A stretch of 57,719 bases of DNA from the IMG/VR virus record IMGVR_UViG_3300012138_000001; one strand, written 5' to 3'. Under the pieces are notes generated by a model, which was given only the letters and a program-made list of their open reading frames with translations, searched no databases and was not told the origin of the DNA. Source of the DNA: a virus. Position 1 is the first letter of the stretch. Each line of letters begins with the position of its first letter. The position numbers and the translations under genes were made by a program. Below, piece by piece: positions 3,492-8,678 of this stretch.

Positions 3492-3812
3492 TTATGCTCC
3501 TACTCCATAAGGATCATCTGGCTCCCAATCAGCCCGTAGTTGACACTTCTCACATTTAGGCTTATCCCTGCCAATACACAAGGGATAAGGATTATTCTGT
3601 TCTGGTGTATAACACTCTGGGTATTCGTATTTTTCACCCTCCTGCGCCTGTTTTACACCCGTTGCCATGTCCCGAATATATTCATGCGGCACATCACAGT
3701 TAACCGCATTCATAAGCAATTCAGATAATGTTGCCTCTTTCATCATTCTATAAAAATCCGTAAATGTAACTTCCACTCTGTCTTCTTTTGATAATGCATC
3801 TATGAAACCCAT
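3492..3812 (-). CDS. hypothetical Cys-containing protein (106 aa)
   Basis: Co-directional ORF; C-terminal CIGRDKPKCEKC cluster. Confidence 0.7.
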   Translation of the reverse strand: MGFIDALSKEDRVEVTFTDFYRMMKEATLSELLMNAVNCDVPHEYIRDMATGVKQAQEGEKYEYPECYTPEQNNPYPLCIGRDKPKCEKCQLRADWEPDDPYGVGA

Positions 3813-3830
3813 CGTTTTTCCTCCTTGACT

Positions 3831-4385
3831 TTAATTTATCTTAACAGTAACGGGCGACATTACCTCCAGCCTATCCCCTAAGTCATCCGCAGATATATCC
3901 CCATCCACAGCCACGTTATAATCCTTGATCGTGGCGGCCGAAAATGCCTTGCAGAACTGGATCAAGTGTGGCGGTAACACTCCAACGACCACCTTGCCCC
4001 TAACATCATCCGCGAATACAGAGGTCATGATAACAGGTGCGTCCGGATGCATGGCAGACAAAATATCTATAGTGGCCTTGTGCTGCGTTACTATCAATAA
4101 TTCGTCCGGGCTATATGTGTCAAGGCCCGGGGCCGGAAATACAGATACGTGATTAACATCCAAGTCAGCTTCGATAATCTCACTTGCGCTCCTGAAGATT
4201 GTGCCGCGCGGTATGATAGGAGCAAAATATTCGTCAATGCCGTAAATATGTAGCATGACCGCCGCTGGTAACGTGGATATAACAACTTGATTTCCAGCCT
4301 TATTTCCTATAATTTCCAGTCCCTTGAATGCGGGAAATCCAAATACTGTTACGTTACAAGTTCTAATAATTTCGTTAAGTTTCAT
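3831..4385 (-). CDS. hypothetical protein (184 aa); C-terminal half tentatively Csx16/VVA1548-like
   Basis: LLIVTQHKATIDIL ... VRGKVVVGVLPPHLIQFCKAF ... ISADDLGDRLE resembles the remembered Csx16 pattern FVTRHxGAxxW...GDxViGtLPvxLAaxvc...ELsaeeM; function call is low confidence. Confidence 0.7.
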   Translation of the reverse strand: MKLNEIIRTCNVTVFGFPAFKGLEIIGNKAGNQVVISTLPAAVMLHIYGIDEYFAPIIPRGTIFRSASEIIEADLDVNHVSVFPAPGLDTYSPDELLIVTQHKATIDILSAMHPDAPVIMTSVFADDVRGKVVVGVLPPHLIQFCKAFSAATIKDYNVAVDGDISADDLGDRLEVMSPVTVKIN

Positions 4386-4400
4386 TGATCTCTCTCCTTT

Positions 4401-4802
4401 TTATTTATCGTTTACTTCCGTCACGCCGGGAAGCTTCCACAATTCAATCAGCTCATGCGCTACAACCGCAATCCCTGGTAAATTGTCAAAATGCACGGCA
4501 TCCTCGATTATGTGTAGCAATATTCCTTCTAATTTTTTTTGAGCACTTACCTCGTCATCTTCTGGCACCCGTCTCTTAGCCTTTTCATCTTCCAGTGTCT
4601 TGCGTTCATCTCTTCCAAGAAGATAGTCAGTGGATACTTGAAAGAAATCTGTTAGCTTCAATAATGTGTCAGCGTCCGGCTTCGCCTTTCCGGTTTCCCA
4701 CATTCTTATTGCGCTTACAGACTTGCCCAACCTGGCCGCCAAATCAGTAGCCGAAACATTTGTCGTTGTTCTTAGTTCTCGTATTCTATCCTTAAACTCC
4801 AT
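4401..4802 (-). CDS. XRE-family helix-turn-helix regulator (133 aa), Cro/early-regulator candidate
   Basis: MEFKDRIRELRTTTNVSATDLAARLGKSVSAIRMWETGKAKPD; GAGGTG 7 nt before ATG 4802 (track ORF extends to 4937). Confidence 0.85.
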   Translation of the reverse strand: MEFKDRIRELRTTTNVSATDLAARLGKSVSAIRMWETGKAKPDADTLLKLTDFFQVSTDYLLGRDERKTLEDEKAKRRVPEDDEVSAQKKLEGILLHIIEDAVHFDNLPGIAVVAHELIELWKLPGVTEVNDK

Positions 4803-4989
4803 CGCGGCCACCTCGTTCTTTCTTATAGCGATACATATTTTCCGGCTCCCTCTCCGGCCGCACACGGGCGGGATTAGTCCGCACAATGAATGGATTAAGT
4901 GCGCCGTCATTGATGATGTGGCAGTACTCCGGATCACGGCAGTACTCCGGATCGTGTAACTGTAGTAGTGTGTTTATTGCAAAGTGCAT
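4792..4989 (-). CDS. hypothetical protein (65 aa) with tandem DPEYC(R/H) repeat
   Basis: AGAGGGAGAT before ATG 4989; an 18-bp tandem DNA repeat lies inside it. Confidence 0.55.
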   Translation of the reverse strand: MHFAINTLLQLHDPEYCRDPEYCHIINDGALNPFIVRTNPARVRPEREPENMYRYKKERGGRDGV

Positions 4990-5032
4990 ATCTCCCTCTT
5001 TCTCCAACTTTTGACAATTGGAACGTTTTGTT

Positions 5033-5758
5033 TTAAGCAATAGACATCTGATTGTTACAGTTATCAACCTGCTCTTTCAGTACTACCGGAAGCTTATATT
5101 CACCGATAATACCAATCGCCATATCGCACTGATTACGCTTGATTGCCTTATACGTGGCGATCCCGAATTCCCTTTTGATCTGGCTGTAAATGTCGGAATA
5201 TACCTTCCCCCTCAAGGATTTGTCCTGATATGCTGGAGTTTGTTTTCCACCCAAGCACTGGACGCCCTTCTTTTTGACTGCGATGGTGATCTTGTCACCT
5301 TCGATTCCCAAAATGGGCATGTCCTGTTTAAAGGTTTGCAAATCCTGATTGACGGCATCCAATTTTGTATCCACTTCTTTTATCGCTTGAAACTGTAATT
5401 CTAAAAATTCCAATGCAGTCTTTGGTTTTTGGTAAGAACCAGTTTTTCGTATTGACGGAAGCACTTCATTCGTTACCCAGCGCTTGAAACGTTTAGCGGA
5501 ATCGAGTTTGCTATTGAGTACAAGAGCATATAGCCCCGATTCGTTAATGACCGTAATTCCGCGATTGTTAAATTCGGAAGTACCGTTTTGGTAGTTCTGG
5601 CGATCCTCAATGTCTACGTGCCTGTTAATGTCTCTACTTCCGTTAGCGTATCCCAAGGCATCGGCTATATCTTTTCCGACCAACCACGGTTCACCGTCAA
5701 TTTCAACTGTCCTGACTTTTCCAAATTCTTCATTTTCAAATAATTTAATTTCGTTCAT
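5033..5758 (-). CDS. Bro-N domain / ORF6C-domain antirepressor-like protein (241 aa from internal ATG)
   Basis: MNEIKLFENEEFGKVRTVEIDGEPWLVGKDIADALGY...INESGLYALVLNSKLDSAKRFKRWVTNEVLPSIR; GGAAAGGGGAACAG before ATG 5758; frame stays open upstream (see 5759..6100). Confidence 0.85.
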   Translation of the reverse strand: MNEIKLFENEEFGKVRTVEIDGEPWLVGKDIADALGYANGSRDINRHVDIEDRQNYQNGTSEFNNRGITVINESGLYALVLNSKLDSAKRFKRWVTNEVLPSIRKTGSYQKPKTALEFLELQFQAIKEVDTKLDAVNQDLQTFKQDMPILGIEGDKITIAVKKKGVQCLGGKQTPAYQDKSLRGKVYSDIYSQIKREFGIATYKAIKRNQCDMAIGIIGEYKLPVVLKEQVDNCNNQMSIA

Positions 5759-6100
5759 CTGTTCCCCTTTCCTTTCCAATCCTAGCGATACCATCAGTGC
5801 TTCATTAACTAATTCCTGCTCCGCATCCGATATATGCCCCATATAGTTACCTAACCTTTCCACTGAGATAGAGTGTATCTGCTCGCACAATGCGGTAGAC
5901 TTGTGTCTTGCCATCACATCCACATGAGTGGGCAATCTTTTCTTTTTCGGGCTGCTGGTCAGATACACAACTTCGATAACGGGAGAATACAGGTTGCATT
6001 TTTCGTTGCTGACGATGATGGCCGGTCGATCGGCACTTTGTTCGCTGCCGCAGGATAGTTTTTCGCTGTCGTGAATATAGTAGATATCTCCGCGCTTGAT
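5759..6100 (-). CDS. PemK/MazF-family toxin domain, no canonical start and no stop before the Bro-N gene
   Basis: IKRGDIYYI..GSEQSADRPAIIVSN..LPTHVDV..ALCEQIHSISVERL..EALMVSLGLE; AAGGAGG (6110-6116) 9 nt before ATC 6100; in-frame TGA at 6134-6136. Confidence 0.75.
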
Positions 6101-6125
6101 CTTTTTAATCCTCCTTATTCCACTT

Positions 6126-6401
6126 TTAACAATTCATAATCTCATTCAGCGTCACCCGCCTACCGAGAACAATACTGGCGGCCTGCATTGGATTCATGTT
6201 CGTTTTCCGAGCCAACCGCTGTAATTCCACCAGCCGGTAGTTGTTCGGGCTGTCCTGCCGGTCATAATAAGTTTGCTGGCAGAATCCGCAGATTGTCATG
6301 ACTTGCTGTCGTGATAAATGGCTTCGGGAAATATTGGCGTTGATTTCCCCGGCGGCTATGCTTAGCGCCTGTTTTTCTTGATTTGGTTTAATTGCTGGCA
6401 T
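6126..6401 (-). CDS. small putative DNA-binding protein (91 aa), antitoxin candidate by position
   Basis: Stops about 20 nt upstream of the MazF-like frame; HTH-like NYRLVELQRLARKTNMNPMQAASIV. Confidence 0.65.
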   Translation of the reverse strand: MPAIKPNQEKQALSIAAGEINANISRSHLSRQQVMTICGFCQQTYYDRQDSPNNYRLVELQRLARKTNMNPMQAASIVLGRRVTLNEIMNC

Positions 6402-6456
6402 AATGTCACCTCCTTTTTGACAATTGTTGCATTATATTAATTACTGGTTACACTTG

Positions 6457-6485
6457 TTGCTATTTCCTCCAAATTCTCCTATAAT
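6457..6485 (+). promoter_or_regulatory. sigma-A-type promoter TTGCTA-17-TATAAT
   Basis: Hexamers at 6457-6462 and 6480-6485, 50 nt upstream of ATG 6536. Confidence 0.5.
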
Positions 6486-6535
6486 CAAAGTACAGGCACT
6501 GGCATGCCGAGTACAAAAGAAGGGAGAAAATTACG

Positions 6536-6739
6536 ATGAAATCATTTAACGATTTCCGTCAGTCAATCACCCAAGAACATCAGAATGAATGGTCGAGGGA
6601 ATTAAATGCACGGATGCTTCAAATCCAGCTACCCCTCACGGACGAAACCGTTGAGGAATTCTTGTCATTTGTATTGAATTCCAATATTGAAATGACGCTT
6701 AAGATTCTTCGGCAGTATCATGAGTGGCTTTCGGATTAA
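6536..6739 (+). CDS. hypothetical protein (67 aa), plus-strand (same orientation as repressor and integrase)
   Basis: GGGAG RBS 9 nt before ATG; own promoter. Confidence 0.65.
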   Translation: MKSFNDFRQSITQEHQNEWSRELNARMLQIQLPLTDETVEEFLSFVLNSNIEMTLKILRQYHEWLSD

Positions 6740-6854
6740 GTGAAAGCTTAAACTCCGGCGTAAATGTCTCGTAAACCGGAGCCGCCTGCCGCCCTTGTAA
6801 TTCAATTATGAGGGTGGCTATTTCTTTAGGCGTTGCTTTGATTGTTACTTTCAT
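6699..6854 (-). CDS. hypothetical small protein (51 aa)
   Basis: GGAGAAAAACC before ATG 6854 (MKVTIKATPKEIATLIIELQ...); below the track length cutoff; 41-nt convergent overlap with 6536..6739. Confidence 0.45.
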   Translation of the reverse strand: MKVTIKATPKEIATLIIELQGRQAAPVYETFTPEFKLSLNPKATHDTAEES

Positions 6855-6873
6855 GGTTTTTCTCCTTTTCTTA

Positions 6874-7032
6874 TTATCCTACTTTTTCATCACTTGCGAT
6901 GGTATGCAGATTGAATATAGTAGATATCGTTGTAAATAATATCTGCTTCTCTTTGGGGGACAATTCATCCGTCCCGTTTAAGATTTCCTCAATCTGATCA
7001 AGGCGTTCCTTCAACTTTTTGGATTTTTTCAC
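6874..7032 (-). CDS. hypothetical small protein (52 aa)
   Basis: GAGGTGAGAAA before GTG 7032 (KKSKKLKERLDQIEEILNG...); below the track cutoff. Confidence 0.55.
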   Translation of the reverse strand: MKKSKKLKERLDQIEEILNGTDELSPKEKQILFTTISTIFNLHTIASDEKVG

Positions 7033-7058
7033 TTTCTCACCTCACTTTCCGTTTATTT

Positions 7059-7808
7059 TCAGGCAATAAATTTGTTAACAAAATATTGCTGACCGTATCC
7101 TGTCACCTTAGTTGTCTTACTAATCGTTGTATGACCGTCAGAGTGAGTGATTGCAGTTTCCTTAACTTCGAATAGCTTCATTTCCATACTGCGTTGCGTA
7201 GGGGCATTGTAGTCAGTGCCCTTCCGGCGGATTAAATAACCATTATTTCTTAAATATTCAAATAACCGCTTCTCGCCGGTATCCACACCATTTTGTTTTA
7301 GAATTTTTGCCAGTTCGCCAATCAAGATTGATGTCTTGCTCGTGGCTACCGCATCGGCAAATAGTGCTTTGGGCTTCATTTCGCCAATTAGTTTGTCTTT
7401 GCCGGCAATAATGTTTTGAGCGACAACAAGCGCATTTGCTACAATCTGTTCTGGTGTCAAGTTTTCCTGATTTGCAATATACCCACCATTATTTCTAATT
7501 GATGGCAGTACTTCGCTCGTCACCCAATGCTTGAATCGTTTCGCCGACTCTAGTTTGCTGCTAAGAATAAGGGCATACATTCCGGACTCGTTTATAATTA
7601 CCGCTTTGCTTTTGTAATTCGAACCCGTACCCTGTAATAGGGTGGTGGTTTTATCATCATCATCTACGTGCTGACTTATTGCGTTTTCTGTTTTCGCATA
7701 TCCCAATGCTTTTGCGATGTCCTTTCCCACAAAATATGTTTCGTTATTCAGTTGTACTGTTCGTATTTGCCCGAACTCTTCGCTGTTAAAAATCTGTAAT
7801 TCTTTCAT
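7059..7808 (-). CDS. antirepressor: Bro-N domain + KilAC-like C-terminal domain (249 aa)
   Basis: MKELQIFNSEEFGQIRTVQLNNETYFVGKDIAKALGY...AKRFKHWVTSEVLPSIR; first gene of the leftward operon, divergent from the repressor. Confidence 0.9.
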   Translation of the reverse strand: MKELQIFNSEEFGQIRTVQLNNETYFVGKDIAKALGYAKTENAISQHVDDDDKTTTLLQGTGSNYKSKAVIINESGMYALILSSKLESAKRFKHWVTSEVLPSIRNNGGYIANQENLTPEQIVANALVVAQNIIAGKDKLIGEMKPKALFADAVATSKTSILIGELAKILKQNGVDTGEKRLFEYLRNNGYLIRRKGTDYNAPTQRSMEMKLFEVKETAITHSDGHTTISKTTKVTGYGQQYFVNKFIA

Positions 7809-7842
7809 TTATTACCTCGCTTTCTACTTGCTTTGTAAGTAT

Positions 7843-7871
7843 ATATTACCACTGCGTGAGTGAGATGTCAA
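7843..7871 (-). promoter_or_regulatory. leftward early promoter TTGACA-17-TAATAT
   Basis: Minus-strand TTGACA at 7866-7871 and TAATAT at 7843-7848. Confidence 0.6.
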
Positions 7872-7891
7872 CACTTTTTTTTATTTTTTAC

Positions 7892-7920
7892 TTGCTTAGT
7901 GAGCGTAAGTATGATATATT
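7892..7920 (+). promoter_or_regulatory. rightward repressor promoter TTGCTT-17-TATATT (TG-extended)
   Basis: Hexamers at 7892-7897 and 7915-7920; 20 bp from the divergent promoter. Confidence 0.6.
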
Positions 7921-7942
7921 ATATTTACGAGGAGGTGTTGAT

Positions 7943-8344
7943 TTGAAAGAGCGCATAAAAAAAGTAAGGGAAAGTCTTAATATGAGCCAAGCAGAATTCA
8001 GTAAGGAAATATTGGTCGGTTCGTCCACGGTAGCAATGTGGGAGCTGGGAACAAGGAGTCCCAAAGACATACACATTTCGAAAATATGCGAAAAGTTAAG
8101 TATAAGCGAAGTTTGGTTGCGAACCGGCAAGGGCAATATGAAAAAAGAGCTTTCTATAGAAGAAGAAACATATGGACGCTTCGGGAAAATAATGGAAGTG
8201 GGAAGTCCCATAAAGAAAAACATGGCCACAATGCTATTAAAGATAGTGGAAACACTTCCGGACGAACAATGGGAAAGAATCTACGGGGAATTCAAGGCCT
8301 GCATCGACAGGGTAGAAAGAGTAGAAGAAGAGAGCGAAGATTAA
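7943..8344 (+). CDS. CI-like XRE-family repressor (133 aa, TTG start)
   Basis: GGAGGTG 5 nt before TTG 7943; LNMSQAEFSKEILVGSSTVAMWELGTRSPK HTH; same strand as integrase. Confidence 0.85.
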   Translation: MKERIKKVRESLNMSQAEFSKEILVGSSTVAMWELGTRSPKDIHISKICEKLSISEVWLRTGKGNMKKELSIEEETYGRFGKIMEVGSPIKKNMATMLLKIVETLPDEQWERIYGEFKACIDRVERVEEESED

Positions 8345-8355
8345 TCCTCGCTCTC
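8330..8355. terminator. near-perfect 26-bp palindrome spanning the repressor stop codon (hairpin, weak terminator candidate)
   Basis: GAGAGCGAAGATTAATCCTCGCTCTC; no clear U-tract. Confidence 0.35.
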
Positions 8356-8678
8356 TAAGACACTCCTTATTAAACTAATGAGACTTTTCAGGAATTTTGC
8401 GCTATGTATTTTGTCAATCAATTCATGCAGTTCGCTTTTAAGACTTTCCACGTATACACACCCCTTTCACTGCCAGCAAGCCAGATATTCCTTACAGATT
8501 TGCCGATGTGTATATTATAACTGCACAACAACGTTATGTCAACAGGAAAATAGAACACAGGTTCGACTTGTTTCGACACGCAAAAGTATTTACCACAAAC
8601 CTTAAATTTGCCCCTGCTGCTAATGGAATTTTTCCGGCAAGGGTGCATTTTTATACTCAGGGTCAGGGAGGGACGATA

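Follow-up and report, generated by a model that had tools for sequence, protein, structure and literature searches.

MazF toxins are normally understood as two-gene toxin-antitoxin (TA) modules. In CapRel(SJ46), a toxin (N-terminal) and a regulatory or sensor part (C-terminal) share a single chain, and a separate antitoxin gene is lacking; in the dual-start genes of phages (lambda S105/S107 holin-antiholin, T7 gene 4A/4B, phiX174 A/A*) a long and a short protein share the C-terminus, with their ratio set by start strength. Bro-N/ORF6C proteins followed by an XRE gene have been described as TA-like pairs (Makarova 2009, PMC2701414), and the pneumococcal Bro ('Bro-XreB' pair of prophage MM1) inhibits growth, and XreB does not neutralise it (PMC4257102). 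In arbitrium phages, host MazF acts in the lysis-lysogeny decision alongside an antirepressor (10.1101/2025.11.27.690993). The gene described here lies in a 57,719-nucleotide (nt) stretch of viral DNA (IMG/VR record IMGVR_UViG_3300012138_000001; the whole stretch is called the window) and joins, in one open frame, a predicted MazF/PemK endoribonuclease to a Bro-N/ORF6C protein. As judged from sequence, it is a member of a small and conserved family of early phage genes that fuse a MazF-type endoribonuclease, via a short flexible linker, to an antirepressor-type protein. The parts (MazF RNase, antirepressor, dual-start gene) are known, whereas their combination is undescribed in the literature or phage records searched. 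On balance, the members of the family would be two-product genes that give an abundant antirepressor and a rare MazF-antirepressor, with only a trace of the long form, or none, in this phage. The features of the gene are:

5033..6100, minus strand: long frame MazF-linker-Bro-N-ORF6C; read from the ATC at 6100, a candidate rare long isoform (translation, three Pfam domains, full-length homologues P0123, P0124, P0125 and P0392/L016)
5773..6100, minus strand: predicted MazF/PemK endoribonuclease domain (Pfam, alignment with PDB entries, Foldseek, ratio of non-synonymous to synonymous substitution, dN/dS or omega)
5756..5772, minus strand: linker or junction ERKGEQ, which doubles as an internal ribosome-binding site, RBS (Shine-Dalgarno sequence, SD, and start at the same place in 9 of 9 fusions; predicted local distance difference test, pLDDT, below 50 in the linker)
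5033..5758, minus strand: short product, a Bro-N + ORF6C antirepressor of 241 amino acids, aa (N-termini of homologues, phrog_463)
6098..6116, minus strand: orphan RBS, ATT and ATC, with no canonical start after it (sequence)

The toxin domain that a first-pass annotation of this DNA had read from its motifs proved to be a genuine and complete MazF/PemK domain, matching Pfam PemK_toxin (PF02452) over profile positions 1-108 of 109 (E 4.2e-20, 72.4 bits against a cut-off of 23.1). It aligns end to end with the MazF proteins of Staphylococcus aureus, Bacillus cereus and B. subtilis (phmmer against PDB, E 5e-16), and Foldseek placed its AlphaFold model at a TM score of about 0.8 to 4MZP, 1NE8 and 4MDX. 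Compared with the type II toxins of Firmicutes (B. subtilis EndoA/YdcE, S. aureus MazF, B. cereus BC0266), it has the same fold, the full-length domain and about 37% identity, and it shares Arg25, Thr48 and the motifs GSEQ..RP, LPTHV and (L)CEQI. Arg25 (codon CGA, 6028-6026) and Thr48 (codon ACC, 5959-5957) align with R25 and T48 of 7BXY and 4MDX, which are catalytic by mutagenesis (PMC7354611), and both are invariant in the alignment of fusions. A MazF RNase activity is thereby predicted for the domain. Unlike those toxins, the gene is phage-borne, without a MazE-type antitoxin gene or an autoregulated two-gene operon, and its chain runs on into an antirepressor without a stop and lacks a canonical start. 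Neither here nor in the relatives is the toxin laid out as a small separate protein with a start and a stop of its own, as in a type II MazEF module. An attempt to obtain the specificity of the RNase from motif avoidance was abandoned, as the depletion of UACAU on the phage sense strand was not significant (51 observed, 62 expected, z -1.8); UACAU is absent from the 1.37-kb operon, but the expectation there is only about one.

The C-terminal 241 aa are an ordinary antirepressor (Bro-N, E 1.8e-26; ORF6C, E 9.1e-35; phrog_463 anti-repressor, E 2.4e-82), with 60-68% identity to Blautia prophage proteins. Like the Bro-Xre pairs mentioned above, the gene has an XRE-type helix-turn-helix (HTH) gene one small open reading frame (ORF) downstream; unlike it, known Bro-N/ORF6C members have no in-frame nuclease domain ahead. 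The own RBS and ATG at 5758 that the first-pass annotation had assigned to the Bro-N protein were recovered (AAAGGGG, 5 nt, ATG at 5758-5756), and the stand-alone homologues of the antirepressor (237-246 aa; P0126 and others) start exactly at the residue of this internal ATG. The same arrangement was found in the nine distinct fusions described below: all of them (9/9) have an internal SD (GGAGG, AGGAG or AGGGG, 4-11 nt 5') and a start codon at the first antirepressor residue, which was ATG in five, GTG in two and TTG in two, and in all nine the 5-9 linker residues after MazF are encoded by purine-rich DNA. The linker peptides themselves vary (ERKGEQ, EDRGGKQ, EKGDSNN, NNEGEN, EESEEIK and others), whereas the first antirepressor residue is Met, Val or Leu and the Val or Leu codon is always the start-capable one, which suggests that selection acts on the nucleotide signal. 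No such regular internal SD and start was seen in the stand-alone MazF genes that have C-terminal tails. Thus a second in-frame initiation site with an SD is conserved in the relatives, as in the dual-start genes of lambda, T7 and phiX174; unlike in those genes, the long form here adds a whole enzymatic toxin domain, and the use of both starts is suggested by their conservation. The 241-aa short form would probably be the main product. In the AlphaFold2 monomer model of the long form (predicted template modelling score, pTM, 0.34), linker residues 112-122 had a pLDDT below 50 and no confident packing between domains was seen, although oligomer contacts are possible.

The recurrence of the fusion was established by several searches. 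A word-indexed protein search with the 355-aa frame as query found the full-length fusions P0123 (376 aa, 66% identity), P0124 (362 aa, 61%) and P0125 (367 aa, 52%, with ORF6N in place of Bro-N), together with P0122, a fusion with a truncated gene call. Four further ones, namely P0242 (MazF + ORF6N + ORF6C), P0262 and P0290 (an EndoA-like MazF with one or two Bro-N and ORF6C) and P0359 (MazF + AntA + HTH_3), came from an exhaustive HMMER search of 1.84 billion representatives, and a scan of viral contigs with a MazF-only alignment gave L016, which is 95% identical to the window and has an ATG and an uninterrupted 359-codon fusion. In total, the searches gave nine distinct fusions of MazF to an antirepressor, spread over at least three clades of MazF, and the frame is open in them, with no stop after the toxin. 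In a neighbour-joining tree of MazF, made without bootstrap on a short domain, the window, L016/L001, L002/3/5, L004 and L098 formed one clade, with a tail-less stand-alone MazF as sister, whereas L096 and the EndoA-like pair L097/L099 were placed elsewhere. That one clade holds five fusion lineages at a MazF distance of 31-36%; therefore, the frame has stayed open across lineages, also through exchanges of the middle module. From these placements, the fusion architecture probably arose more than once.

The fusion was found in none of 50,697 GenBank phage records, and full-text literature searches for MazF or PemK fused to Bro-N, ORF6C or an antirepressor found no description of it. A scan of genomes and metagenome-assembled genomes (MAGs) of gut Clostridia gave 42 MazF loci, none of them fused to an antirepressor. 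A metagenome scan with a junction alignment picked up Bro-N patterns only and was uninformative on the frequency of the fusion, its best 80 loci being ordinary antirepressors and seemingly long matches such as L133 being spurious. A Bro-N gene adjoins only two of about 85 stand-alone MazF loci, so that the fusion is not a simple reflection of common adjacency.

The MazF part belongs to PHROG 1936, 'MazF-like growth inhibitor' (E 3e-29), a subfamily with members in 97 GenBank phage records (Faecalibacterium phages and virulent Lactobacillus myophages among them), in hundreds of viral contigs from the gut and in genomes and MAGs of Clostridia. Its members (Faecalibacterium phage FP_Brigit gp83, Lactobacillus myophages Bacchae and Semele) are 42-57% identical to the window MazF and, like it, are found in the early or replication regions of gut Clostridia and Lactobacillus phages with no recognisable antitoxin; unlike it, they are stand-alone proteins of 110-200 aa, typically with a variable C-terminal tail of 40-90 aa and with normal ATG and SD starts.

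Some other architectures were seen among the MazF genes. P0329, from the representative library, has 287 aa and two tandem MazF domains, the second with GNKR instead of GSEQ, and is possibly a single-chain MazF dimer. Stop-less MazF fusions were also found in Lachnospiraceae MAGs, in L208 (2947-3879) with a 185-aa partner that is Cys-rich, zinc-ribbon-like and likewise equipped with an internal SD and ATG of its own, and in L197 (2944-3840) with a 173-aa partner that has an HTH-like segment at its end. Many stand-alone phage MazF proteins carry acidic or coiled-coil tails (e.g. P0002, P0006, P0012, P0086, L084, L210), several of which share the C-terminal motif (A)ERD.YK.(L/M)Y..LL.K; auto-inhibition and oligomerisation are candidate roles for these tails.

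The 5' start was compared between the two kinds of genes. An ATG with an SD 4-10 nt upstream was present in 45 of 52 stand-alone genes with distinct upstream regions versus one of the nine fusions (Fisher p 1.7e-5), a contrast made on nine lineages that lack phylogenetic independence and with SDs scored by simple motifs. The start is a TTG with a good SD in L004 and L096, an ATG directly abutting the SD in L016 and L098, a GTG overlapping AAGGAGG and followed by an ATA 8 nt after it in L002/3/5, an ATG 15 nt from the SD in L097 and an ATG behind the weak AAAGGA in L099, and in the window there is no canonical start codon. These defects differ from one another, as they would if low output had been selected for repeatedly. 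The tail-less MazF that forms the sister of the fusion clade (L009, about 3930-4000) lies behind a perfect TTGACA-17-TATAAT promoter, and its only start is a GTG abutting the SD, another weak start.

In the window, the minus-strand frame is open from 6133 to 5036 and, preceded by an in-frame TGA at 6136-6134, runs for 366 codons to the TAA at 5035-5033, of which 355 codons lie between the ATC at 6100 and the stop. The leading 11 codons (6133-6101; ATT GTT AAA AGT GGA ATA AGG AGG ATT AAA AAG) include no ATG, GTG or TTG, and none of these was found in any frame within 20 nt 3' of the orphan SD. This AAGGAGG lies at 6116-6110, is abutted by an ATT (6109-6107) and is followed, after a 9-nt spacer, by the ATC at 6100-6098. 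The first-pass annotation had therefore read the region correctly in placing a strong AAGGAGG 9 nt before ATC 6100, in finding no start codon between the TGA and the toxin domain and in reporting a 355-codon frame with no stop before Bro-N; it had set the limit of the open frame at 6100, and the frame is indeed open there, but the real limit is 6133. The 19-mer RBS GGAATAAGGAGGATTAAAA also occurs in three unrelated phage genes, there 6-7 nt 5' of an ATG, and an exact search of IMG/VR with a 24-mer of the startless joint gave no match. An RNA structure hiding the start was rejected, as the fold of 6180-6040 was no better than those of shuffled sequences (z 0.84), and an Rfam search of 3500-8500 found no match. 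A +1 frameshift from the upstream 91-aa gene into the MazF frame, which is +1 relative to it, was likewise rejected, as UGU UAA A would allow no slippery re-pairing and has no upstream SD. The available gene calls start at GTG 5968 (JGI, 311 aa) and ATG 5842 (Logan/ENA, 269 aa), both inside the MazF domain and without an SD; neither call recovers the internal start at 5758, and the toxin domain stays hidden in both.

The origin of the startless 5' end could be followed by a three-way alignment with the sister phages L001 and L016, together with the sequence of L014 (IMGVR_UViG_3300012148_000005). The features concerned are:

6103..6125, minus strand: mosaic joint (three-way alignment and L014 sequence)
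6126..6401, minus strand: 91-aa orphan gene, first of a small operon (no Pfam or PHROG match; relatives in three clusters; without MazF elsewhere)
6402..6500, minus strand: upstream region of the operon and RBS, containing TATAAT (near-identical in L001, L016 and L014, whichever first gene follows)

Similarity of the L014 type, covering the 91-aa gene, stops just past its TAA at 6126, and similarity of the L016 type, covering MazF, starts at AAAGATCA, about 6104, resuming five codons into the L016 MazF (MANVK|IRRGD). The approximately 20 nt in between hold a generic strong SD and no start codon. The non-coding region further upstream is common to the window, L001 and L016, and the first gene has been replaced; the Bro-N module of the window has been replaced too, its divergence from L001 and L016 being saturated, whereas ORF6C is near-identical. 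By this alignment, the window has lost an L016-type ATG at a mosaic recombination joint, its upstream gene having come from an L014-like phage.

These data are consistent with the following scheme. The linker DNA would act as SD and start, so that the antirepressor is made alone from ATG 5758 as a 241-aa protein, probably in bulk, whereas the full MazF-antirepressor chain would depend on a deliberately poor 5' initiation site and be rare. The RNase has no antitoxin gene as a partner and would be restrained by its low synthesis and perhaps also by its tether to the antirepressor or by co-assembly with it. In this phage, the recombination that swapped the upstream gene would have removed the ATG without affecting antirepressor output. 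In Escherichia coli, initiation at the codons AUC, AUU and AUA reaches 0.02-3% of that at AUG (10.1101/063800). The long form might be made at about the per-cent level of an ATG start or below, or not at all; it would need the AUC at ideal spacing from a perfect SD, perhaps aided by ribosomes that terminate 25 nt upstream, and may equally be silent.

Besides the limits of the start comparison given above, several points weigh against this scheme. The spacing of the SD is all that points to use of the ATC. The AlphaFold model has no confident contact between MazF and the antirepressor, and nothing in it would support a regulation of the RNase by the tether. The fusions were found with a query that contained the antirepressor, which biases any estimate of how common they are relative to MazF fusions of other kinds, and in unbiased MazF searches an antirepressor was found only on L016. 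Disabling lesions in two of three near-identical sisters (the lost start in the window and a frameshift in L001) would fit selection against the long form or indifference to it, and the dN/dS signal described below could all predate the loss of the start or lie on the L016 branch.

The most serious alternative, although clearly the less probable one, is that in this phage the MazF domain is a dead remnant, in which 6100-5773 is untranslated, only the 241-aa antirepressor is made and the open frame has yet to decay. The lack of ATG, GTG and TTG, with the SD as a leftover of the recombination joint, would be expected from it, as would the state of L001, which is L016 minus one CCGA unit of a (CCGA)3 run inside MazF (about 5928-5940 of L001), an independent 4-nt frameshift in the same domain that looks like slippage. 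Gene callers also miss the domain. Between the window and L016, ORF6C is far more constrained (25 synonymous and 2 non-synonymous changes, omega 0.017) than MazF, although the value of the latter (11 synonymous and 6 conservative non-synonymous changes, omega 0.13) is significantly below neutrality; therefore, the MazF domain has been under purifying selection for most of the window-L016 divergence, while omega does not date the loss of the start. Against a remnant stand also the 122 codons without stops or indels and with the catalytic residues intact, the perfect 7-nt SD ideally spaced from a near-cognate AUC, a codon class with measurable initiation, and the fact that the family keeps weak and not absent starts, so that very low expression may be the selected state. 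Among the possibilities raised in the first-pass annotation, that of a toxin-effector fusion stays viable and is strengthened by nine recurring fusions, and that of a toxin throttled by a non-canonical start is strengthened by the comparatively weak 5' starts, although the long form of this phage may be silent; that of a decaying TA locus fits the lost start and the L001 frameshift, but the gene family is conserved and is not a TA pair.

If, as we favour, two products are made in the family, the purpose of the tether might be to target the RNase or to let the short isoform titrate it. An unlikely extension is a single-gene switch built from the long and short isoforms, in which the antirepressor moiety would bring traces of MazF to the repressor/operator complex or to its nascent mRNA, or an excess of the short form would silence the RNase, so that inactivation of the repressor is coupled to RNA cleavage in the lysis-lysogeny decision. 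With start strength as an evolutionary tuning knob, such a switch would explain why the 5' start has been crippled repeatedly and in different ways. Inactivation of a repressor, through its binding by the antirepressor part, is predicted here from gene context alone, the gene lying near a CI-like XRE repressor and the early region.

Still less probable is a fused toxin-antitoxin or sensor neutralised in cis, in the manner of CapRel, with the antirepressor masking MazF and freeing it upon a trigger such as the repressor or a component of an invading phage. The order of the parts, with the toxin at the N-terminus and the variable partner at the C-terminus, would suit such a mechanism, as would the exchangeable partner modules (Bro-N, ORF6N, AntA), the finding of no separate conserved antitoxin near the fusions and the variable tails that the stand-alone members also carry. 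However, in the AlphaFold model the domains are independent, the linker is disordered and no docking is seen, which lends no support to intramolecular masking, the conserved internal start argues for an independent life of the partner, and the fusion genes are in the early lytic region beside an immunity module and not in a defence island. Unlike CapRel(SJ46), moreover, the window has a different toxin family and a partner with an internal start and a known independent family.

A classical type II pair, with the product of the 91-aa gene as a MazE-like antitoxin, is very improbable. The first-pass annotation had described this gene as HTH-like and in the antitoxin position of a TA locus, and there is indeed a small ORF (6126..6401) directly upstream in the same operon that ends 25 nt before the toxin domain at ATC 6100; an HTH-like nature was not confirmed, as the protein had no Pfam match even at E 10, no PHROG match and no AbrB, RHH (ribbon-helix-helix), MazE or other family signal, and its relatives formed only three clusters in 5.8 billion proteins. 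The gene is found without a downstream MazF at 98% identity in L014 and L015, where it is followed by a stretch of about 550 bp rich in G+A and an unrelated 213-aa gene, and at 66% identity in L225, where three tiny ORFs follow. Conversely, in L001 and L016, which have the same MazF, a 75-aa HTH_23 gene (phrog_989) replaces it behind the same upstream non-coding region and RBS; the remaining fusion loci have unrelated upstream genes or none, and the five closest loci each have a different upstream neighbour. An all-against-all comparison of the ORFs within 1.8 kb of the nine fusion genes, made for a conserved neighbour as a hidden antitoxin, revealed only generic similarity among XRE repressors. 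Therefore, the co-occurring antitoxin of a type II MazEF is not found here; by these comparisons, the 91-aa gene is interchangeable cargo and not a dedicated antitoxin. A promoter of the operon may lie in 6402..6500, where a scan for the sigma-70 consensus called no site. The G+A-rich stretch of L014 (3280-3830), at the site of the MazF-antirepressor gene, has a GC content of 0.57-0.62, a GC skew of +0.3 to +0.4 and degenerate GGCAAAGG-like words, with no convincing ORF on the gene strand.

Least probable of all is a sequencing or assembly artefact in which a missed base conceals a junction stop or a 5' start. The sequence is indeed metagenome-derived, and a 4-nt indel in a microrepeat separates L001 from L016. 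However, the open junction recurs in nine independent lineages that come from different samples and assemblers, what marks the startless 5' end is not an indel but a mosaic joint with about 20 nt of unrelated sequence, and the same protein ends are found in the JGI and Logan/ENA assemblies. All three alleles (ATG, frameshifted and startless) are each present in both assemblies, which probably derive from the same samples, so that this agreement rules out a quirk of the assembler and is not an independent replication.

With a rare long form and an abundant short form as the favoured reading, a phage lineage would keep an RNase without an antitoxin gene, joined to an antirepressor, with its dose apparently set by the quality of start codon and SD and by the internal restart. 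A long form, if produced, would represent a natural case of a nuclease tethered to a regulator of lysis and lysogeny, which matters because host MazF feeds into this decision in arbitrium phages (10.1101/2025.11.27.690993). The three near-identical natural alleles would also offer a clean test bed for the dosing of a toxic protein by near-cognate initiation. As gene callers systematically start inside the toxin domain, the architecture is invisible in current annotations.

Downstream of the fusion gene, one small ORF comes before the XRE gene (about 4404-4805). This small ORF, just 3' of the fusion gene, contains on the minus strand an 18-nt tandem duplication, GATCCGGAGTACTGCC(GT/AC), at 4918-4953, which yields DPEYCRDPEYCH and is single-copy in L001 and L016. 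A second antirepressor gene (Bro-N + KilAC/ANT) is found at 7059-7808 on the minus strand, in the same early direction, and adjoins a divergent CI-like XRE gene at 7856-8344.

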